Assembly (NCBI GenBank): GCA_964533715.1
Contig: CAZHNI010000001.1
Coordinates: 5,514-69,513, forward strand
Source of the DNA: an uncultured Gammaproteobacteria bacterium
Lineage (GTDB): Bacteria; Patescibacteriota; Patescibacteriia; Magasanikbacterales; GWA2-37-8
Direction: 5' to 3'
Length of the DNA stretch: 64,000 nt
Shown one piece after another: positions 15,650 to 62,962 of the stretch. The translations under genes were made by a program, and so were the position numbers. The notes beneath the pieces are model-generated. The model ran no database searches. It was not told the DNA's origin and saw nothing but the letters and a program-made list of their open reading frames with translations. Within the stretch, counting starts at the first letter, position 1. Each line of letters starts with the position of its first letter.

Positions 15650-15722
15650 TGGGTCGGCCGGGGATCGAACCCGGGACCTTATCCTTAAAAGGGATCTGCT
15701 CTACCAGCTGAGCTACCGACCC
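15650..15722 (-). tRNA. tRNA-Lys (anticodon TTT)
   Basis: Reverse complement gives GGGTCGG acceptor, D-arm GCTC-AGCTGGTA-GAGC, anticodon loop CTTTTAA, T-arm CCGGG-TTCGATC-CCCGG and acceptor CCGACCC+A. There is one G-A mismatch at the top of the anticodon stem. Confidence 0.7.
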
Positions 15723-19475: not shown

Positions 19476-20004
19476 CATTAAAAATCCCCCGCAGTATGAG
19501 CGAGGGATTTTAGTTGTTTATTTTTTAAGACTCTTTGGTTTCATCCAGTAATTTTTACGACGGAATTTTTTTGTTTTTCGTGCCAAGGAGTGGGCTTTTT
19601 TAGTATTTTTTTTGGCGTGTTTTAAACGAGAGCGCAAGGCTGTGTTCATAAGATGATTATTTAAAAGTTTGGGTATAATAGCAGATTATCTTTAAAAATG
19701 CAAATTTTGCTTAGTCAAGCAAAAACTTTTCATTAAATTTTAAATTATTATTCGAGTAATTTAATTACCTAACCGTTGGTTGATACTCAGAATAGTACAC
19801 CTATAAAGTACACCTATACTTGACACCTGTAACAAATTGGTGTAGGCTTGTTTTGCCAAACTCCTGGCTTTTTTTGTTACCCAATTCGCCGCACCGCGCA
19901 TGTGGTGGGTAGGGAACAGGGGAACCACGGAGTTACAACCACGGGCCGCGCACGGCTGCGCGCGCCCACATCCCGCTACGCGAAAGGCGGGAGGAGGATT
20001 GACC

Positions 20005-21513
20005 ATGTTGCATCGCTGGTTCGTCACGATCGTGGCGTTCGCCTTGGCCCTGGGCCTCGGCAGCGCCGTCAACATCAACGTCAACAGCAACCGCCCCGTC
20101 CTCGGCGCCATCGTCGGCGTACTGGGTGAGGGGGTGGCGGCCGCGCAGGTGCCGACCAACTACCGGTTCTTCAACGGCACCGGCGTGAACGGCCAGCTCG
20201 GCCAGCCCTACACGCAGGGCGCTCAGTCGGCGCTCAAGGTGCGGATCGAGAAGGTGTGGCCCACCATCGCCAAGCGGCACCAGAATGCCCTGGAGTATTA
20301 TGGGGTAATGGCCAACACCAACTGGTTCAGGAACAACTCCGGTCCGCAAGGGGAGTACTGGTTCGTGGCGGGGATCTTCCGCCAGCTCACCAAGATCCCG
20401 CTGGACGACCGAAACAAGACAAACGAGGCACTGGTGGGAAAGATCTCATCGGATCCTGACTATGTCGACTCGCTGATGATCATGAACAAGACCGGCGCGC
20501 TCATCAGCGGTGGGTACGTGGGCGAGGTGCACGTCTATTTCGGCGATGTGAAGGGTGGGTGCACGCCGAACGCCCTGGCCTACTACTTCTCTCCCCCTGA
20601 CATTTCGGGGATGAAGGTAGTCGGAGTTGTGCTCTGCGGAGACGACGGCGTCCGGGTGGCCAACTTGCCAACCGACTTCGGTGGTTTCGATACTACCCTG
20701 GAAAGCATCTTCGTCCACGAGTTCGCGCATGCCGTCGACGACGTACACAAGGCAACCACAGGCAATGAGCTGAACATCTCGGATATCATGGAGATGGATC
20801 GGTCCTGCATCCGGGTCTACGGGTTGAAGGGGATCTTGGCGTTGGTGGGGAACTCGGCCTACGATCCGCTCACGTATCTCGATCTGCGAACCATCGCGGA
20901 TTGGTACCCGATCTGGGTGTCGGTGATCAACTACAATTACGATGCTTCGAAGCAGATACTGGTCGGGATGAACGTGGCGGGCGGGTCGTGCGGAGGTGTG
21001 CAAGACGATGTCGGGACGTGCAAGAACGGGCAGACCCCCGTTGCCGCTTGCGGCGGCCTCCCCATCGGCGACGCCGGCACCCCTACCGACGGGGGCATAG
21101 CACCCCTCGACCTCGGCGGCAGCTTCAGAACCCCTTGCACCTCCGACTCGCAGTGCGCCAGCAAGGTGTGCCAAGACGGCCTTTGCCGCAGCCCGTACTG
21201 CGGCAACGGAGTTTTGAACCGCGTGGGTGTCGGAGGAGGCTCCGGTGAGTCCGACATTGACTGCGGAGGGGAGGAATGCGGCAGGTGCGCCGATGGCAAG
21301 AAGTGCTTCGCGGCCACCGACTGCAAGTCCGGCGTGTGCACCGGCGGCAAGTGCGCGGGGGGCGGTGATGTCCAGGGCGGCTGCGATGTCGGCACCGGAC
21401 GCGGTGACCGCAACTGGGGCGCCATTGTGCTCCTGCTCGCTGTGCTCCTCATCTTTTCGTCGGCCATCGCCGCTTGGCGGCAGTTCGAACGGAAGCAAGG
21501 GCGTCGCACCTAG
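20005..21513 (+). CDS. secreted, C-terminally membrane-anchored zinc metalloprotease-like protein with a Cys-rich stalk
   Basis: RBS GGAGGAGG 8 nt upstream of ATG 20005. Signal peptide MLHRWFVTIVAFALALGLGSA. HEFAHAVDDVH, an HExxH motif with a third His at metzincin spacing. Repeated CxxGxC modules (CGNGVLN, CGGEECGRC, CKSGVCTGGKC), a C-terminal TM helix and a basic tail. Confidence 0.6.
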   Translation: MLHRWFVTIVAFALALGLGSAVNINVNSNRPVLGAIVGVLGEGVAAAQVPTNYRFFNGTGVNGQLGQPYTQGAQSALKVRIEKVWPTIAKRHQNALEYYGVMANTNWFRNNSGPQGEYWFVAGIFRQLTKIPLDDRNKTNEALVGKISSDPDYVDSLMIMNKTGALISGGYVGEVHVYFGDVKGGCTPNALAYYFSPPDISGMKVVGVVLCGDDGVRVANLPTDFGGFDTTLESIFVHEFAHAVDDVHKATTGNELNISDIMEMDRSCIRVYGLKGILALVGNSAYDPLTYLDLRTIADWYPIWVSVINYNYDASKQILVGMNVAGGSCGGVQDDVGTCKNGQTPVAACGGLPIGDAGTPTDGGIAPLDLGGSFRTPCTSDSQCASKVCQDGLCRSPYCGNGVLNRVGVGGGSGESDIDCGGEECGRCADGKKCFAATDCKSGVCTGGKCAGGGDVQGGCDVGTGRGDRNWGAIVLLLAVLLIFSSAIAAWRQFERKQGRRT

Positions 21514-21543
21514 TGCCCCCCACGTGAAGTAAAATCATCCGCA

Positions 21544-21590
21544 CCCCGGCCAACCCGGCCGCGTGCGCGGACGAGGTTGGGTTGGCCGGG
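21544..21590 (+). terminator. GC-rich hairpin at the 3' end of the island gene
   Basis: Perfect 11-bp stem CCGGCCAACCC / GGGTTGGCCGG; no T-run (high-GC style). Confidence 0.4.
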
Positions 21591-25646: not shown

Positions 25647-26510
25647 ATGTATACGTCCGTAACAATTAAACAGTTGCACCACGCACTCCAAGCGCTTGAC
25701 CCATCAGCGCTTGTTTTGTTAGGGGGCAGTTATTTATATGACGAAGCGGTAGAGGAAAGTGATGTTGATTTTTATTTTATAATACCTTCATGGAAGATAT
25801 TTTTTTTAAAGAAATTTAAAAAAATAATTCAGAATTTAAAACAGCGTTTTTCTGGCGTGAATTTTAGTGTTATGATTGTGCCACAATGGCTTCGACGGCA
25901 TGGATACTATATTTATGGAAAAGATGTCAGCGGTAAAATTCATACATGGGAACTCCCAATTTCAATATTAATAAGGAATTGTCTTAAGCTGGCCTATTTT
26001 AATTATTTACGGTCAATGGTGGAACCAAAAAATAAAGAGAGAAATGTTCAGAAAGTAAAAAAGCAACTTGCGGTAGCAGAACTTGCCGCGCAAGGTAAGG
26101 TAGATTTTAAAGAACCAATTTTTTCGTGGAAATATATCAAACGACATTTGGTCTCGTCTGTCATTTCGACCGTAGCGACCAAAGGGAGCGAAGTGGAGAA
26201 ATCGCTTGACTGCAGTGACTCACAGATCAAGGGATTCCTCGACTGCGGCTTCGCCTTCGCTCGGAATGACAACGCGAATGACGGTCTACGGCAAGTGCAT
26301 GGACAATTCCTCCCATATTTTAATTTTTCCTTGTCAAATTATTTGCTTTACAATATTCGTTTTTTGCTCAAAGGCAACCCCTTGTTTCTATTTAGTAATC
26401 CTGATAAAATGGTGTTAGAAAAAATGGTTATTGGAATTGAGCACGAAGAAAAACTCCCAGAATTGTATAAAGAAATAAAAAGAATTGTTTTTCCTGTTAT
26501 TATTTTTTAA
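25647..26510 (+). CDS. nucleotidyltransferase-domain protein with an in-frame palindromic-element insertion
   Basis: LLGGSYLYDEAVEESDVDFYFI matches the pol-beta superfamily GS...DxD signature. Codons ~172-209 are encoded by repeat copy 26159-26271. Confidence 0.4.
   Translation: MYTSVTIKQLHHALQALDPSALVLLGGSYLYDEAVEESDVDFYFIIPSWKIFFLKKFKKIIQNLKQRFSGVNFSVMIVPQWLRRHGYYIYGKDVSGKIHTWELPISILIRNCLKLAYFNYLRSMVEPKNKERNVQKVKKQLAVAELAAQGKVDFKEPIFSWKYIKRHLVSSVISTVATKGSEVEKSLDCSDSQIKGFLDCGFAFARNDNANDGLRQVHGQFLPYFNFSLSNYLLYNIRFLLKGNPLFLFSNPDKMVLEKMVIGIEHEEKLPELYKEIKRIVFPVIIF
26159..26271. repeat. palindromic MITE-like element copy (TIR TGTCATTTCGACCG...CGCTCGGAATGACA), in frame in the nucleotidyltransferase gene
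   Basis: Terminal inverted repeats and internal sub-palindromes are shared with the other copies. Confidence 0.7.
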
Positions 26511-32503: not shown

Positions 32504-33286
32504 ATGTCCCAATTGATTTTACCACCACTCGGCGCTGAAACCATGTTTCATATTGGTTCGATACCTGTTACCAACACCATCGTTAACACTTGGATAGCGA
32601 TGGTTATTTTTTTAATCTTTGGCTTGGCGCTTCGCAAACGCGTATCGCTCCGACCAGGAAAATTGCAAAATTATTGCGAATATTTTTTGGATATTTTACT
32701 CGGATATTTTGACCAAGTAACTGGTAGCCGAAAAAAGACAATCCAATTTCTTCCTGTTGTTGGTTCAATTTTTTTCTTTATTTTACTTTCTAACTGGCTT
32801 GGGCTTCTCCCTGGAACCGGCAGCATTCTTAAGGGCCACGAACCATTGCTGCGTCCGGCTAATACCGATTTGAATTTAACCATTGCTATGGCCGCAGTGG
32901 CGGTTATTTCATCGCATATTTTTGGTTTTTTATCGGTAGGATTTTTTACACATATTGGTAAATTTGTTCAAATCAAAAATTTTATAAAAAGTATCCCCAA
33001 AGGTCCGGTTGCAATTTTTCAAGCAATTGTGGAATTTGCAGTTGGGCTAATTGAAATTGTGAGTGAACTTGCCAAAGTAATGTCGCTTTCACTTCGTCTT
33101 TTTGGTAATATTTTTGCTGGTGAAGTTTTAATGACGGTGATGCTTAGTTTGGTAGCGGCGGTGGTTCCGGTTCCATTTATGCTTTTGGAGTTGTTGGTCG
33201 GCATTATTCAAGCTAGTGTGTTTGCCATACTTACGTTAGTATATATGTCTGTTGCCAGCGCTGAACCACACGGAGCGGAACACTAA
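32504..33286 (+). CDS. atpB: F0F1 ATP synthase subunit a
   Basis: Five-six TM helices with the conserved Arg in LSLSLRLFGNIFAGEV. Confidence 0.85.
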   Translation: MSQLILPPLGAETMFHIGSIPVTNTIVNTWIAMVIFLIFGLALRKRVSLRPGKLQNYCEYFLDILLGYFDQVTGSRKKTIQFLPVVGSIFFFILLSNWLGLLPGTGSILKGHEPLLRPANTDLNLTIAMAAVAVISSHIFGFLSVGFFTHIGKFVQIKNFIKSIPKGPVAIFQAIVEFAVGLIEIVSELAKVMSLSLRLFGNIFAGEVLMTVMLSLVAAVVPVPFMLLELLVGIIQASVFAILTLVYMSVASAEPHGAEH

Positions 33287-33323
33287 AACATAAAAACACA
33301 AGAACATTAAAACACAATAAGCC

Positions 33324-33356
33324 GTTTTAATGTTTTAATGTTTTAATGTTTTAATG
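33324..33356. repeat. tandem octamer (TTTTAATG)x4 preceded by an 11-bp perfect hairpin in the atpB-atpE spacer
   Basis: AACATTAAAAC...GTTTTAATGTT stem, then GTTTTAATG repeated four times. Confidence 0.7.
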
Positions 33357-33701: not shown

Positions 33702-33824
33702 TGTCATTCTGAGCCTGCCTCCTGCATGCGCAGGTATGGCGCAGACAGGTGAAATGAAGAATCTTCCTATTATGAAGATCCTTCCCCAAAGGGGTCCCTT
33801 TGGGACGCTCTGCTCAGGATGACA
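33702..33824. repeat. palindromic element copy, intergenic atpE-atpF
   Basis: TIR TGTCATTCTGAGC...GCTCAGGATGACA. Carries the CCTGCCTCCTGCATGCGCAGG and GAAGAATCTTCCTATTATGAAGATCCTTC modules. Confidence 0.75.
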
Positions 33825-34775: not shown

Positions 34776-34776
34776 T

Positions 34777-34884
34777 TGTCATTGCGAGGAGCAAAGCGAC
34801 GAAGCAATCCCCCTGAGTTCAGTGCTCCTGAAAACAAGGGGATCGCCACGTCAGCCGGTGCGAACCGGCTTCCTCGCGATGATA
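34777..34884. repeat. palindromic element copy, intergenic atpH-atpA
   Basis: TIR TGTCATTGCGAGG...CCTCGCGATGATA; shares the GCAATCCCCCTGA core with the rlmN copy. Confidence 0.7.
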
Positions 34885-36716: not shown

Positions 36717-37739
36717 ATGGCAGTAAGTACCAAAACAATTAAACGCCGCATCAAATCAATTTCCAACACCAAAAAAATTACTAAGGCCATGGAGATGATT
36801 AGTGCGGTAAAAATGCGCCGAGCGGTAGCCAATGTTTTGGCTACCCGAAATTATGCTAGCCTGGCTTGGGAAATGCTTAAAGAAATTTCCGAGTACACGC
36901 ACGATGGCCACCATGCACTCTTGCAAAAAAGGCCTGTTAAAAAAATCGGTCTCATTTTAATTACCAGTAACCGAGGGTTGGCTGGCGGTTTTAGCAGCCG
37001 GTTATTGCAGGAAGTAGACAGCTACATAAAAAAAATCACTCATCAAACTGTCATTCCGACGACACGTGCGCTCCGCTCAGTGCAGGCTCCAGAGGAATCT
37101 CTGGCTCATTCGAATGACGGACAGAGATCCCTCGTCGGCGCGAGCCTCACTCGGGATGACAAAGTGCAAATTGGCATTGAAGCCGACATCATTCTTACTG
37201 GTAAGCGCGGCAAAAAAATTTATCATCGTTTTGGGCACACTGTGGTGGCCGAATTTGATAAAGTAGATCTTACCACCAGAATTGAAGAAATTTTACCCAT
37301 GGCCCAGTTGGCGGTAAAAGAATTTGTTGCCGGAACATACGACCAAATTGTAGTGGCGTACATGCATTTTAAATCCGCAATTGAACAAGTGGCCACAGTA
37401 AAACAAATTTTGCCGCTTACGAAAGATTCAATTAAAGAACTGGCCGCCAAAGAAGCTGATGACACTGAAGAAATAGAAGAGAGCACATTTTTGTTTGAGC
37501 CAAACCCGGCGCTGGTGCTTGATGTACTCTTGCCACGTTTGGTTGAAATGCAAATGTATCAGGCAATTTTGGAATCGGACGCCTCCGAGCACAGCGCTCG
37601 CATGATGGCTATGCGAAACGCCAGTGATTCGGCCAGCGATATGATTAAAGAGTTGCAAAACAGCTTTAACAAAGCACGCCAAGCAGCTATTACCCAAGAA
37701 ATTAGTGAAATTGTGGGTGGTGCAGCGGCCCTGGAGTAA
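36717..37739 (+). CDS. atpG: F0F1 ATP synthase subunit gamma with an in-frame palindromic-element insertion
   Basis: Conserved N-terminus (TKTIKRRIKSISNTKKITKAMEMISAVKMRRA) and C-terminus (MMAMRNASDSA...ITQEISEIVGGAAALE). About 38 extra residues (TVIPTTRALRSV...TRDDK) are encoded by repeat copy 37049-37161. Confidence 0.85.
   Translation: MAVSTKTIKRRIKSISNTKKITKAMEMISAVKMRRAVANVLATRNYASLAWEMLKEISEYTHDGHHALLQKRPVKKIGLILITSNRGLAGGFSSRLLQEVDSYIKKITHQTVIPTTRALRSVQAPEESLAHSNDGQRSLVGASLTRDDKVQIGIEADIILTGKRGKKIYHRFGHTVVAEFDKVDLTTRIEEILPMAQLAVKEFVAGTYDQIVVAYMHFKSAIEQVATVKQILPLTKDSIKELAAKEADDTEEIEESTFLFEPNPALVLDVLLPRLVEMQMYQAILESDASEHSARMMAMRNASDSASDMIKELQNSFNKARQAAITQEISEIVGGAAALE
37049..37161. repeat. 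palindromic element copy, in frame in atpG
   Basis: TIR TGTCATTCCGACG...CTCGGGATGACA; inner GAGGAATCTCTGG...GGACAGAGATCC module. Confidence 0.75.
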
Positions 37740-42005: not shown

Positions 42006-42070
42006 TGTCATTCCGAGCGAGGCCAAAGGCCGGCGAGAAATCTCTGTCTCAATCAAATGGACAGAGATTT
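42006..42070. repeat. truncated palindromic element copy (left TIR plus AAATCTCTGTCtcaatcaaatgGACAGAGATTT module)
   Basis: TGTCATTCCGAGCGAGGCC left end identical to the helicase copies; right TIR missing. Confidence 0.65.
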
Positions 42071-42075
42071 TTTTC

Positions 42076-42122: not shown

Positions 42123-42187
42123 TGTCATTCTGAGTGAAACGAAGAATCCTCCTATTATGAAGATCCTTCGCTCCGCTCAGGATGACA
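42123..42187. repeat. short palindromic element copy immediately upstream of, and overlapping, the rlmN start region
   Basis: TGTCATTCTGAGTG...CGCTCAGGATGACA with the GAAGAATCCTCCTATTATGAAGATCCTTC module. Confidence 0.75.
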
Positions 42188-42199
42188 GACGATTATCAC

Positions 42200-43411
42200 A
42201 TGACTAAAATTGTCAAAACAATAGAATCCATTCTAGCTAATGAACCCGCCTTCCGCATTAAGCAAATTGAAAAGGCGTGGTTTGATGTGTCCTTAAATTC
42301 GTACGATGAAATTACTACCTTGCCAAAAGAGCTTCGCGAAAAATTAAAAGATATTCCCTGGTTAAGTTTGGAAGTCCACACCGAATTAAAAAGCAAAATG
42401 GATAACACGCGCAAATACCTTTTTAAACTAGGGGATGGGAATTTGATTGAGATGGTCTTGATGGGTCGTATGTCATTGCGAGCCCCGAAGGGGCGCGGCA
42501 ATCCCCCTGATTTGATCGAGGACGTTGACGAGGAGATTGCTTCGTCAGTCGCTGCGACGCTCCTTTCTCGCAATGACACATCGGCGATTGGCCGCGACAC
42601 CAGTGGCGATCGTTACACCATCTGTATTTCATCTCAAGCCGGGTGCCCCATGCGGTGTGCGTTTTGCGCCACGAGCAAAAGCGGTTTTAAGCGTAATCTT
42701 ACCGCCGAAGAAATTATAGATCAATATCGTTTCGCCCAGCGACTACTGGCCAAAGAAAATAATCGGGTGAATAATATTGTGCTCATGGGCCAAGGGGAAC
42801 CGCTGGTAAACTATGAGAACGTAAAAAAAGCGATCAATACTATTTTAAAAAACAGCGACATCGGCTCTACCAAAATAACTCTATCCACTGTTGGTTATGT
42901 GCCCGCCATGGAAAAAATGATAACCGACACCGACTTTCCGCCGGTGCGTTTTGCCTTGTCACTTCACAGCGCTATAGAAGAATCGCGTAAAAAAATTATT
43001 CCAACGCACAAACCAGGGTTTTTGGAATGGCTCGTGAAGTGGGGGAATGCCTACCACGAAAAATTTGGCAACCGCACCCATTTTATTGGTTTTGAGTACA
43101 TTATGTTAAGTGGGGTAAATGATGATGAAGCACATTTGAAGGCACTGATAAAATTGTGCAAACGTTTTCCTATCGTTCGCGTTAACCTCATTCCGTACAA
43201 CACCACCAACGATGCCGGTGAGGTTGATGAAATTAATAAATTGGAAGAACAAATGGGCTCTAATTATCGCATTTTTACCCGCACCCCGCACGAGCTTATT
43301 GAACATTGGCACGAGAGTCTTATGGATGCGGGAATTACGTCCACTATCCGTTATTCGCAGGGGCAGGATATTGCGGCGGCGTGTGGGCAACTCCGGAATA
43401 AAGAAAAATAG
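42200..43411 (+). CDS. rlmN: radical SAM rRNA/tRNA adenosine-C2 methyltransferase RlmN with an in-frame palindromic-element insertion
   Basis: Radical SAM CxxxCxxC (CPMRCAFC), GQGEPL, and a C-terminal catalytic Cys region. About 36 extra residues (MSLRAPKGRGNPPDLIEDVDEEIASSVAATLLSRND) upstream of the cluster are encoded by repeat copy 42471-42578. Start set at ATG 42200, because tracked start 42182 lies inside a repeat. Confidence 0.75.
   Translation: MTKIVKTIESILANEPAFRIKQIEKAWFDVSLNSYDEITTLPKELREKLKDIPWLSLEVHTELKSKMDNTRKYLFKLGDGNLIEMVLMGRMSLRAPKGRGNPPDLIEDVDEEIASSVAATLLSRNDTSAIGRDTSGDRYTICISSQAGCPMRCAFCATSKSGFKRNLTAEEIIDQYRFAQRLLAKENNRVNNIVLMGQGEPLVNYENVKKAINTILKNSDIGSTKITLSTVGYVPAMEKMITDTDFPPVRFALSLHSAIEESRKKIIPTHKPGFLEWLVKWGNAYHEKFGNRTHFIGFEYIMLSGVNDDEAHLKALIKLCKRFPIVRVNLIPYNTTNDAGEVDEINKLEEQMGSNYRIFTRTPHELIEHWHESLMDAGITSTIRYSQGQDIAAACGQLRNKEK
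42471..42578. repeat. palindromic element copy, in frame in rlmN (108 bp, 36 codons)
   Basis: TIR TGTCATTGCGAGC...CTCGCAATGACA. Confidence 0.75.
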
Positions 43412-44340: not shown

Positions 44341-44370
44341 CAGTGATTCTTCACTGCGCTCAGAATGACA
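44341..44370. repeat. partial palindromic element (right end CGCTCAGAATGACA plus CAGTGAttcttCACTG hairpin) at the helicase start
   Basis: Right TIR matches the family consensus. Confidence 0.45.
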
Positions 44371-44376
44371 GAAAAT

Positions 44377-47300
44377 ATGGGAAAATACTCTTTAAACAAG
44401 GCGCAACGTGAAGCCGTGGAGTATACCAGCGGCCCGCTTTTGATTGTGGCTGGGGCGGGGACGGGAAAGACGACGGTGATTACAAGTAAAATTTGTCGGT
44501 TGATTGAGGAAAAACTCGCCAAACCCGAGGAAATTTTGGCATTAACGTTTACCGAAAAAGCGGCGGCGGAAATGCAGGATAGGGTAGATGAGATAACCAA
44601 TATTGGCTACGCCGATCTCCACATTTCTACCTTCCACGCCTTTTGTCAAAAAATTCTGGAGCGGCATGCCATTGATATCGGCCTCTCCAATTCGTTTAAA
44701 CTCCTCACCGACACGGCGGGCTGGGTTTTGCTCCACAAAAATTTGGATAAATTTAATTTGGATTACTACCGACCGCTCGGCAACCCTACTAAACACATTC
44801 ACGAATTTTTAAAACATTTTTCTAAGTGCAAAGATGAATTAATTACACCGCAGGAATATTTGGAGTATGCGGAAGGTTTAAAATTGAACAATGGACGAGA
44901 CCCCACCCTGCCCTCCCCTTTGCGAAGGAGAGGGGACAAAACCCCCTCCTCTGCAGAGGAGGGGGTAGGGGGAGATCTCGCGGAGGTCGAGCGGCTTACG
45001 GAAATTGCCAACGCGTATCACACGTATAATCAACTGCTTTTGGACAACGCGCTATTTGATTTTGGCGATTTGCTTTTTTATACCGTCAAATTATTTCGCG
45101 AACGGCCGAATGTGCTCAAAATGTTCCAGAATAAATATAAATATATTTTGGTGGATGAATTTCAGGATGTGAACTATTCGCAGTATGAATTAATTAAACT
45201 CCTGGCGGACGCCTCATTGTCATTTCGACCGGAGCCCCAAAGGGGCGAAGTGGAGAAATCCCTGTCTCAATCACGAACGGACAGAGATTCCCTGCCTGCA
45301 CCATGCCTGCGCATGCAGGAGGCAGGCTCGTCGGCCTCCGGCCTCGCTCGGAATGACAATATTGTTGGTCCCAACCTCACCGTGGTAGGGGATGATGACC
45401 AAAGTATTTATGCCTTTCGCGGCGCCAGTGTGGCGAATATTCTAAGGTTTAAAGATGATTATCCAACAGCCAAAGAAGTGGTGCTATCGGAAAATTTTCG
45501 TTCCGGCCAAAAGATTTTGGATGTGGCGTATGAGTCTATTCAGAACAATAACCCGGATCGGTTGGAAGTGAAGTTAAAGATAGACAAGCGACTAAAGGCC
45601 AAAAGGCCATCTGTCATTTCGACGACGAAGGAGAAATCTCTGGCTCACCAAACGATGAATAGAGATTCCCTGCCTGCACCATGCCTGCGCATGCAGGAGG
45701 CAGGCTCGTCGGCCTCCGGCCTCGCTCGGAATGACAATGGGGATGGCGTGGTGATACATTTGCACAAACCAACCGTCGAAGACGAGGTAGCGGCTGTTTT
45801 GGACGAAATTACGCGTATTAAAACGGTTACCGAAGGCGTAACCTGGGATGATTTTGCTATTTTGGTTCGTGCCAACAATCACGCGGATGCGTTTATAAAC
45901 CAACTGCAAACACGAGGCATTCCATACGAATTTTTGGCTTCTAGCGGATTGTATCGTCAACCGATTATTTTGGATTGCATAAACTTTTTTAAACTCCTGA
46001 ATAATTATCACGAATCCAGCGCAATTTATCGACTGCTCTGTTTACCTTTTTTTGAATTTAGAGAAAATGATTTACAAAAAATTACCTTTAATGCCAAGCG
46101 CAAAAGTATTTCGTATTACGAAGCACTCAAACGCGCTCCCGAATTTGATGTGTCGCAAGCAGGGATTAGCGTGTGTGCTAAATTGGTGGAAGTAATTCAT
46201 GCCGGCCTCCAGAGTATGCGTTACGAAAAGCCATCGGTGGTGCTGTATTCATTTTTGGAAAATAGTGGTTACCTCAAATACTTAACACACCAGGAAAACG
46301 AAGGTAAGGGCGATGTGATTCGCCAAATTCATTATTTAAAACAGTTTTTTGATTACATTGCGCAGTATGAATCGGTAACGCCTGAGGCGCATGTGGTCGG
46401 GTTTATAGAGCATTTTATGATGGTAGTGGACGCGGGTGATAAGGGAAGCCTCTACCAGCCGAGCGACACACCGGATTCCGTAAATATTTTGACGGTGCAC
46501 GCCTCCAAGGGCTTGGAATTTCGCTATGTGTTTGTAGTGAATTTGGTAGAAGATCGGTTTCCATCACGCAGTCGCAGTGACGCGCTGGAAATTCCGCTTG
46601 AACTCGTGAAAGAGCAATTGCCGGAAGGCGATAGCCATATTCAAGAAGAACGACGATTGTTTTATGTGGCCATGACGCGCGCCAAGGAACGTTTGTATTT
46701 TACCAGCGCGAGCGATTATGGTGGTACGCGCACAAAAAAGATTAGCCGATTTTTGGCGGAGTTAGATTTTGGTTCTGTCATTCTGAACGGAGCAAAGCGC
46801 AGTGAAGAATCCCTGTCTGCGCAGGCAGGTCTGTCTCAATCACCAACCGACGGACAGGGATCCTTCGCTTCGCTCAGGATGACAAAAAAAGTAAATGAAA
46901 TGAGTGAGCGAGTGTACGAAACGCCAAAAACTTTTTCATTCTCACAATTGCGATCGTACGAAACCTGTCCATATCAATACAAACTGGCGCATATTTTGCA
47001 TATCCCCATGAAGGGCAGTGCGAGTTTTAGTTTTGGTTCCAGCATGCACAACACACTCCAAGCGTTTTATGAACGGGTAATTGAGCTTAACAGTTCCAAA
47101 CAAGTCTCACTTTTTGACACACCCAAACCATCTGTCATCCCGAGCGTAGTCGAGGGATCCCTTTCGCCAACGTCAAGGGATTCCTCCACTCCGCTACGCT
47201 CCGGTCGGAATGACAAAGCGGTGAAAGTACCAGAATTTGAGGAGCTCTTAAAAATGTACGACGCTAAGTGGATTTCGGATTGGTTTAAGGATAAACGCCA

Positions 47301-62233: not shown

Positions 62234-62962
62234 ATGGCAAAAAATAGAATCGTAAATACCAAATTTTGGATGGACGATTATATTTCTAACCTTGATCCGG
62301 TTGAAAAATTGCTATTTTTGTACTTTATAACTTGTCCGGCTACGGATATTTCTGGTGTATATGAAGTTCCAATTAAAACGGTGGCGACTGATACCGGAAT
62401 TGACCACCAAACTGTTACCAGAATTATTAAGCGTTTTACCCGCGACAAGAAGATTTTTTATATCCATGGATGGGTTGGAGTGGCAAATTTTGCCAAACAC
62501 CAACTTAATAATCCAAAAGTACAGGCAGGTATTAAAAATGGCTTATCTAAGGCACCAAAAGAGATTTTAGATAGACTATCATTGTCTATGGATAGTCTAT
62601 TGCACACAGACACAGACACAGACACAGACACAGACACAGACATTGAGAGAGAGCGACCACAAGCACTTGAAAAACAAATCGAACCATTTTCCGGCCAATA
62701 CGCACCCTCAATGATCGCCAAATTCATTCTTCACTGGTCGGAACAAGACAAACGCGGTCGGGAGCGCTGGCAGAAAGAAAAAACGTGGGAAATTGGTAAG
62801 CGTCTGGCGCGCTGGAAATTACAGGATGAAGAATGGAGTCATCAGCGCGATGCGCGGCAAGAGTTAAAAAAGGTCGAAGAGATGCCAACCCACCGAGAAC
62901 CGGTAGCAGAGAGAACAGACACAGGATTTTCAAAACCAGATTTTAGTAGGTTTCAAAAATAA
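62234..62962 (+). CDS. phage replisome-organizer-like protein (N-terminal winged-helix domain) with internal (TD)7 repeat
   Basis: N-terminus NTKFWMDDYISNLDPVEKLLFLYFI resembles the phage replication-organizer N-terminal family; weak call. Confidence 0.4.
   Translation: MAKNRIVNTKFWMDDYISNLDPVEKLLFLYFITCPATDISGVYEVPIKTVATDTGIDHQTVTRIIKRFTRDKKIFYIHGWVGVANFAKHQLNNPKVQAGIKNGLSKAPKEILDRLSLSMDSLLHTDTDTDTDTDTDIERERPQALEKQIEPFSGQYAPSMIAKFILHWSEQDKRGRERWQKEKTWEIGKRLARWKLQDEEWSHQRDARQELKKVEEMPTHREPVAERTDTGFSKPDFSRFQK
62604..62643. repeat. (ACAGAC)n hexanucleotide microsatellite inside the replisome-organizer-like gene
   Basis: CACAGACACAGACACAGACACAGACACAGACACAGACA encodes TDTDTDTDTDTDTD. Confidence 0.8.

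Follow-up and report, generated by a model that had tools for sequence, protein, structure and literature searches.

Palindromic repeats read in frame within protein-coding genes have been described from Rickettsia, whose Rickettsia palindromic elements (RPE), as the work of Ogata et al. (2000, 2002) is summarised in PMC10969869, measure about 100-150 bp and reside in housekeeping genes. Hairpin repeats of another kind are known from Neisseria, where the NTS (CGTCATTCCCGCGMAVGCGGGAATCYRG) includes the dRS3 palindrome and has been generalised to the 'Ssn-related motifs' (SRM); small GIY-YIG nucleases (Ssn) bind SRM hairpins as single-stranded DNA (ssDNA) and cleave the DNA a few nucleotides on their upstream side; cleavage depends on the GTC that precedes the palindrome and binding on the C that follows it (Chenal et al. 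2025, Nat Commun 16:2388, PMC11893778). The ssn gene typically has the motif on both flanks, and the resulting NTS-ssnA-NTS arrangement resembles an insertion sequence (IS) (PMC11893778). In the neisserial intergenic mosaic elements (NIME, dRS3-RS-dRS3) two palindromes of the 20-bp type ATTCCC N8 GGGAAT surround a variable segment of 50-150 bp (PMC1797815). Here we analyse a 108-bp segment inside rlmN, a 23S rRNA methyltransferase gene, on a stretch of 64,000 nucleotides from an uncultured bacterium of the patescibacterial order Magasanikbacterales (contig CAZHNI010000001.1 of assembly GCA_964533715.1; this whole stretch is hereafter the window, and positions refer to it). We conclude that the segment is probably a non-autonomous repeat composed of two inverted hairpin units of the Ssn/NTS-like kind, i.e. 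the ends of a GIY-YIG cassette minus its gene, which would be translated and tolerated by the host protein.

A nested palindrome with the layout of two Ssn-related hairpins

The segment at 42471-42578 is a nested palindrome bounded by perfect 12-nt terminal inverted repeats, and its parts follow one another as TGTCATTGCGAG, CCCCGAAGGGGCG, CGGCAATCCCC, a 26-nt loop, GAGATTGCTTCG, a 22-nt spacer and CTCGCAATGACA (Table 1). An earlier sequence-only reading, essentially right although it left the kind of element unnamed, had delimited it with correct coordinates and length; the 13th base (C) that it counted into the left boundary has no partner. As a single strand the element is predicted to collapse into one long hairpin, with folding energies of -55 kcal/mol for RNA (z = -4.0 against shuffles) and -27.4 kcal/mol for DNA (z = -3.9), and its G+C content rises locally to 0.56, the flanking DNA having about 0.37.

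Each half of the element reads T-GTC-ATTGC...GCAAT-C, which is the layout of the NTS/SRM. In the left half the predicted fold leaves TGTC unpaired and closes an ATTGCG/GCAAT stem, giving a hairpin semi-palindrome with GTC just 5' and C just 3' of the stem, as in an SRM. Half-units of the form TGTCAT[TC]NN...N'N'[AG]ATC occur 20 times in the window, 17 of them inside elements of the family described below, against 3.3 in shuffled sequence. The element thus shares with the NTS/SRM the unpaired 5' GTC, the stem that starts with ATT and ends with AAT, the C directly after it and the presence of many copies per genome; it differs in the longer spacer within the hairpin (8-30 nt), in the joining of the units into inverted doublets of 65-141 bp, and in that most copies lie inside coding sequences (CDS) and are read in frame. 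It is also akin to the NIME, in which paired palindromes likewise flank a variable segment with many sequence families for the middle, although these are Neisseria-specific intergenic arrays whereas the present copies are isolated doublets with a short middle, many of them within genes.

A dispersed family whose coding copies keep the host frame

The window contains 21 termini of the type GTCATTSYGAG where 2.2 would be expected. A stricter search, which required termini in pairs, returned 10 hits in the window (one nested, leaving nine separate elements), 7 of the 10 being coding; extended to six related loci (L001-L006), i.e. to about 127 kb in total, it recovered 19 elements; shuffled sequence gave none. 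Of the 19 elements, twelve are located in CDS, and all twelve keep the host frame without a stop codon. Their hosts are as unrelated as rlmN, atpG, an open reading frame (ORF) with a nucleotidyltransferase domain and a UvrD/PD-(D/E)XK helicase-nuclease, the latter with four copies, and the coding copies use several reading frames (SLR...RND, VI...RND, VI...RMT and LSF...RND), while the intergenic ones lie between intact genes. This is the behaviour expected of an in-frame palindromic repeat of the RPE kind, inserted into unrelated genes whose ORFs stay open. Alignments of the helicase and of AtpG across the syntenic loci show the corresponding loops filled, empty or occupied by different elements.

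The sequence-only reading had pointed out a core, GCAATCCCCCTGA, common to the rlmN copy and to one between atpH and atpA. This core indeed has exactly two matches in the window, at 42498 and 34804 (0.09 expected), and it places both copies in the same family; the further claim that it proves mobility goes beyond what a shared 13-mer can carry by itself, better evidence being the decoupling of element similarity from host-gene similarity and the variable presence of elements at orthologous loops, as set out below for RlmN. The atpH-atpA copy (34776-34884) would become part of the atpA reading frame if translation began at TTG 34776, adding about 35 residues; since orthologous AtpA proteins have 505 aa and the protein here 538 aa, that copy is probably intergenic.

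All copies are built from four boxes, TGTCATTNNGAG (outer-left), N'N'AATC (inner-left), GATTNN (inner-right) and CTCN'N'AATGACA (outer-right), separated by variable spacers and loops that frequently form side hairpins. Two variable bases co-vary through the four boxes; on this basis the copies of the window are of GC, CC, CT or TC type, and other loci add the CG and AC types. A pan-bacterial scan with the exact pattern, one genome being taken per species, retrieved at least 120 loci in more than 15 phyla with outer and inner boxes and variable spacers; the phyla include Bacteroidota, Chloroflexota, Planctomycetota, Pseudomonadota, Cyanobacteriota, Bacillota, Omnitrophota, Nitrospirota and Patescibacteria, and isolate genomes of Mucilaginibacter, Flavobacterium and Calothrix are among the carriers. 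Among the matches listed, 2.24 of the six frames are free of stops, compared with 1.64 ± 0.085 in controls with shuffled interiors. Rfam returned only tRNAs and noise (whole window at the gathering threshold; element at E <= 10), the few matches in plasmid and phage collections were unannotated and supplied no name for the element, literature searches with the terminal DNA strings retrieved primers only, and searches for palindromic or MITE-like elements (miniature inverted-repeat transposable elements, MITE) in bacteria of the candidate phyla radiation (CPR) and for cyanobacterial small dispersed repeats yielded nothing relevant and no usable link, respectively. Patescibacteria and intragenic or in-frame copies are mentioned neither in PMC11893778 nor in the later literature searched. 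An intein or an intron was ruled out by the size of the segment and the lack of a matching family.

The same ends enclose a GIY-YIG gene in other genomes

At locus L038, from a Woesebacteria genome, a half-unit precedes by 13 nt an ORF of 94 aa with a GIY-YIG domain (PF01541, E = 1.4e-16), and a doublet lies past its stop codon. The arrangement recurs. Among the 73 metagenome loci with enough flank around the nuclease ORF, a forward box is found within 160 nt upstream in 58 (median distance 46.5 nt) and a reverse box within 220 nt downstream in 67 (median 55 nt), so that 56 of the 73 have both boxes around a GIY-YIG gene of about 95 aa; a flanked gene was also identified at L076. The hairpins of this family therefore stand on both sides of a small single-domain GIY-YIG gene, as those of the SRM do, and their sequence variants change together with the cassette. 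Both ends of one such cassette, L148, could be aligned with the arms of the rlmN element, and it is on this account that we describe the insert as gene-less cassette ends. The nearest solved structures to the flanked nuclease are UPF0213 proteins (E = 5e-5), and a single relative was met in viral contigs. As a separate observation, this nuclease (loci L127-L206) is unusually conserved, with 55-76% identity between CPR, cyanobacterial, proteobacterial and other genomes, and box variants of the cassettes switch in all four boxes together (ATCGC/GCGAT in L170 and L200, ATTAC/GTAAT in L190).

Perfect terminal inverted repeats of 12 nt, small size and many copies would also be features of a classical MITE, that is, a deletion derivative of an IS with a DDE transposase, moved by cut-and-paste via its double-stranded ends. 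The ends are indeed common to a gene-bearing unit, but the gene of this unit, the only one found bracketed by them, encodes a GIY-YIG nuclease without known transposase activity, and no transposase was detected among the 36 window ORFs scanned. In 125 copies among the matches listed, direct repeats at the flanks did not exceed the chance level and no conserved flank motif was recognised; it is this absence of target-site duplication on which the MITE test fails. Furthermore, the inner boxes co-vary with the outer ones, which is not required of plain terminal inverted repeats, and an all-against-all comparison of the neighbourhoods of 120 copies among the matches listed (1,772 ORFs clustered) disclosed no recurrent linked gene, the best cluster covering 6 loci, as expected for non-autonomous copies. 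An origin as a classical MITE is thus very unlikely.

The lack of target-site duplication, the inverted doublet of imperfect hairpins and the long ssDNA hairpin are, on the other hand, what would be anticipated from a doublet of repetitive extragenic palindromic (REP) hairpins (REPIN), mobilised by a REP-associated tyrosine transposase (RAYT) of the IS200/IS605-like Y1 type, and the analogy is drawn in the Ssn paper itself (PMC11893778). The mosaic, modular build and the association with one small gene that has the same hairpins at both ends extend this likeness to the REP-RAYT system and to bacterial interspersed mosaic elements (BIME) at large. Nevertheless, that gene codes here for a GIY-YIG nuclease and not for a Y1/HUH transposase, and the REP sequences are lineage- or even species-specific whereas the present boxes are common to many phyla. 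The REP/RAYT test failed because neither of its marks was found: no Y1 (RAYT) gene was found in the neighbourhoods examined, and the element begins with TGTC instead of a GTAG-type 5' tetranucleotide. We regard a REPIN proper as highly improbable.

The insert occupies a loop of RlmN that has been filled repeatedly

The rlmN ORF runs unbroken and in frame, without a stop, through the element. Its best database relatives carry the annotation 23S rRNA (adenine2503-C2)-methyltransferase and for the most part come from Candidatus Magasanikbacteria and other Patescibacteria, and a Pfam search recovered the Radical_SAM domain. The peptide that had been read from the segment, MSLRAPKGRGNPPDLIEDVDEEIASSVAATLLSRND, is correct; its codons span 42470-42577 and are thus shifted by one base relative to the element. 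Its position immediately before the radical-SAM cluster holds only approximately, as TSAIGRDTSGD (11 residues) and RYT intervene before ICISSQAGCPMRCAFC. That the 36 codons are an insertion is borne out by the closest insert-free homologues (P0004, P0007, P0011 and P0013, 70-86% identical), which read MGR-KNLKEGATEDSLA-RYTIC, and by Escherichia coli RlmN, in which VETVYIPE is directly joined to DDRATLC; in the alignment with RlmN sequences and its mapping onto the E. coli enzyme, the segment did not align to conserved RlmN sequence.

According to the same alignment, C142 of the window protein corresponds to C118 of E. coli RlmN, C149/C153/C156 to C125/C129/C132 and C395 to C355, and none of these five cysteines varies among 30 homologues. 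The homologue alignment served to build an AlphaFold2 model (predicted template modelling score, pTM, 0.81), which superposed on RlmN crystal structures with template modelling (TM) scores of 0.77-0.85, normalised by target length, and Foldseek matched the model to 6fz6 with E = 4e-28 and to 3rf9, 3rfa and 5hr7 with E of about 1e-26. The CX3CX2C cluster, the equivalents of C118 and C355 and the RlmN fold assign the protein to the RlmN/Cfr family, and with its cysteines kept and its model superposing on RlmN structures the enzyme appears intact. Internally, the predicted local distance difference test (pLDDT) drops below 50 only at residues 97-112 and 116-135, i.e. in the insert (91-126) and the linker that follows, and it does so again at the C-terminus; this segment lies between the strands 82-90 and 138-142. 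The model therefore places the roughly 36 extra residues, which are probably disordered, in the linker from the N-terminal domain to the first strand of the radical-SAM core, a site that the fold seems to tolerate, with low confidence confined to insert and linker and the remainder superposing.

The very stable hairpin, which in RNA would bring both ends together, raises the possibility that the insert is removed by excision at the RNA level or skipped by translational bypass, so that it never reaches the protein. Yeast mitochondria and gene 60 of phage T4 offer examples of GC-rich inserts that are bypassed. However, removal from the RNA would not require that twelve of twelve coding copies stay in frame and free of stops, and the Rfam searches mentioned above revealed no family at the gathering threshold or at E <= 10. 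Nor does Ssn act on RNA (PMC11893778). This explanation is accordingly given little weight and looks very improbable.

Orthologues were informative on the history of the loop. The window, L002 (P0010) and L004 (P0012) have a GC-type element one base past the GR codons; L003 (P0002) and L005 (P0026) have one of the CC type, which follows NLKxxQ; L006 (P0006) carries another element, and P0003 and P0005 have P/G-rich inserts of a different family. In a neighbour-joining tree of ungapped columns the window protein adjoins P0002, with its different element, and then the empty P0004, whereas P0010, which shares both element and insertion point with the window, groups with the empty P0021 in a different clade. 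Similarity of the elements does not follow that of their hosts: between the window and L002 the rlmN CDS are 68-71% identical and the elements 90.5%, with 35 of 36 positions shared in the left arm, while between the window and its sister L003 the gene is 79-86% identical and the element only 61%. We read these inserts, from the alignments, as several independent gains or replacements drawn from a conserved pool; an ancient presence followed by many exact losses is less economical, since the empty loops are 13 residues long in all clades.

This pattern also bears on the idea that RlmN has evolved a functional, lineage-specific loop in situ, such as an additional arm for RNA binding. Compared with E. 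coli, this clade already has some 10 more residues in the linker, and the insert is close to the strand of the Cys118 equivalent. Yet its DNA forms a nested palindrome of which the genome has further copies, orthologues have unrelated peptides or nothing in the same loop, and the region is modelled at low confidence, all of which renders such a loop extremely improbable. An artefact of assembly or binning that joined repeat-containing reads, conceivable for what is probably a metagenome-assembled genome in which repeats can mis-join, has a negligible probability given the continuous ORF with RlmN homology on both flanks, the family members in the same loop of independently assembled relatives and the occurrence of the family in isolate genomes.

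A probable gene-less cassette, tolerated within a protein

The explanation that we favour as probable, a gene-less Ssn/NTS-like doublet, would work as follows. The rlmN element would represent both ends of a nuclease cassette of about 390 bp whose gene has been replaced by the 26-nt loop, each unit consisting of an unpaired (T)GTC, an ATTGC...GCAAT stem broken by a variable spacer, and a C after it. Copies would spread via single-stranded intermediates that form hairpins and are acted upon in trans by a cognate nuclease of the Ssn-like kind, which may be encoded elsewhere in the genome or may have been supplied in the past; that such an enzyme acts in trans on ssDNA hairpins is suggested by the architecture. 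The insert would be translated and tolerated without needing any role in RlmN, and the loop would appear as a hot spot mainly because selection purges insertions elsewhere in the gene.

Several observations weigh against this explanation. The documented role of Ssn is that of a transformation-modulating nuclease and not that of a transposase (PMC11893778), and the route by which hairpin doublets would be copied and inserted is hypothetical. None of the elements matched the published SRM string, HGTCWYN(0-2)YYVSBRHN(0-5)WNVSBRGN(0-2)RNCYNB, whose sole match in the window (57369) lies outside them, because the spacers of the elements are longer than the string permits. The flanked nuclease matched only the general GIY-YIG domain of Pfam and no family of NCBIfam, so its placement in the Ssn clade (cd10448) is putative, and there is no GIY-YIG gene in the window or in L001-L006. 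The lengths of the coding copies are not all multiples of three, which implies that the insertions involve an extra gain or loss of host bases. Finally, that the RlmN insert is translated is deduced from the frame conservation of the twelve coding copies alone.

In behaviour, then, the rlmN element is a case of the RPE phenomenon, and in sequence layout and gene association it goes with the Ssn-related hairpin repeats. Taking the published description of the RPE as it is summarised in PMC10969869, the two have in common in-frame palindromes in unrelated housekeeping genes of a small-genome bacterium, sites compatible with the protein fold and additional intergenic copies; the comparison rests on that description, and the host phylum (here Patescibacteria) is different, as apparently is the sequence. 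The present family is further set apart from the RPE by its span of many phyla, its tie to a nuclease cassette and its use of several reading frames. Rickettsia is among the SRM-rich genera (PMC11893778), and a deeper link between the RPE and the present family is possible. A much bolder proposition, which we consider rather unlikely, is that the Ssn-like cassettes are truly mobile, that gene-less doublets spread single-stranded without target duplication and are a main, ongoing source of new surface loops in essential proteins of CPR bacteria, and that the Rickettsia palindromes and the neisserial dRS3/NIME belong with them to one pan-bacterial system.

Other copies and features of the window

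Table 1. Positions of the rlmN element, its parts, its host gene and further family copies in the window.
Feature	Position	Strand	Remarks
rlmN element	42471..42578	.	Nested palindrome; + strand translation is residues 91-126 of the 403-aa reading
Outer-left box TGTCATTGCGAG	42471..42482	+	Unpaired TGTC, then ATTGC
Left spacer CCCCGAAGGGGCG	42483..42495	+	Small side hairpin
Inner-left box CGGCAATCCCC	42496..42506	+	GCAAT, then C; pairs with ATTGC of the outer-left box to give an NTS/SRM-like hairpin
Variable central loop	42507..42532	+	Position filled by the GIY-YIG ORF in the autonomous cassette
Inner-right box GAGATTGCTTCG	42533..42544	+	
Right spacer	42545..42566	+	Carries a small side hairpin
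Outer-right box CTCGCAATGACA	42567..42578	+	
rlmN host gene	42182..43411	+	409 aa from 42182, 403 aa from 42200; CX3CX2C and both mechanistic cysteines intact
Copy in nucleotidyltransferase-domain ORF	26159..26271	.	In frame
Copy in atp operon	33702..33824	.	Intergenic
GC-type copy, atpH-atpA	34777..34884	.	Has GCAATCCCCCTGA in common with the rlmN copy
Copy in atpG	37049..37161	.	In frame; site filled in L005, empty in L002
Half-unit and inner hairpin, then T-run	42006..42075	+	Directly past the stop codon of an ABC-transporter gene (41999)
65-bp CT-type copy	42123..42187	.	Spacer upstream of rlmN
Single half-unit hairpin	44345..44369	-	Overlaps the first ATG (44365) of the helicase ORF
Copy in UvrD/PD-(D/E)XK helicase-nuclease	45218..45358	.	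In frame
Copy in UvrD/PD-(D/E)XK helicase-nuclease	45612..45736	.	In frame; right half nearly identical to that of 45218-45358
Copy in helicase	46776..46884	.	In frame
Copy in helicase	47133..47215	.	In frame

Some of the copies listed in Table 1 deserve comment. The half-unit with inner hairpin and T-run past the ABC-transporter gene looks like an intrinsic terminator built from half of an element, and the spacer between the ABC-transporter gene and rlmN of L004 also holds a family copy. The right halves shared by the first two helicase copies extend over about 75 nt and include the side hairpin CCTGCCTGCACCATGCCTGCGCATGCAGGAGGCAGG, to which one in the copy at 33702 is related; such sharing suggests a recent duplication or gene conversion between copies. 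Orthologues of the helicase start where the window ORF has its fifth codon, which makes 44377 the probable true start.

The helicase also contains, in frame at 44900-44975, a member of a second, unrelated palindromic family (CCCCTTTGCGAAGGAGAGGGGACAAAACCCCCTCCTCTGCAGAGGAGGGGGTAGGGGG, translated as PSPLRRRGDKTPSSAEEGVGG), and P/G-rich inserts resembling PSPLRRRGDKTPSSAEEGVGG were seen in the RlmN homologues P0096, P0120 and P0003 and in the same loops of the L006 helicase. Elsewhere in the window, the ORF at 15909-16478 matches the Translin family (PF01997, E = 1e-14), a mainly eukaryotic and archaeal family. In the region 19900-21590, an ORF of 537 aa without a Pfam match is overlapped by long antisense ORFs and is followed by a G+C-rich palindrome at 21545-21590. 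Tandem repeats comprise four units of GTTTTAAT at 33279-33356, upstream of the atp genes, and 6.5 units of ACACAG at 62604-62642. Across positions 1-64000 the long ORFs are essentially all on the + strand, while the - strand carries two of the three tRNA genes, at 961-1033 and 15650-15722.

Implications

In-frame 'selfish' palindromes have been viewed as something particular to Rickettsia, and the hairpins associated with Ssn as intergenic sequences that tune transformation in Neisseria; the rlmN locus links both. A hairpin doublet with the Ssn layout is here apparently read as protein in an essential rRNA-modifying enzyme, and also in the gamma subunit of ATP synthase and in a repair helicase, with identical loops struck repeatedly in related genomes. 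If our interpretation is true, it would provide a concrete and testable source for the many unexplained protein insertions in bacteria of the candidate phyla radiation, and it would back the idea raised with the discovery of Ssn that the unit of nuclease plus hairpins is, or was, a mobile element. It would also call for caution on the part of annotators and of those who predict structures, as such segments would be repeat-derived and not lineage-specific domains.

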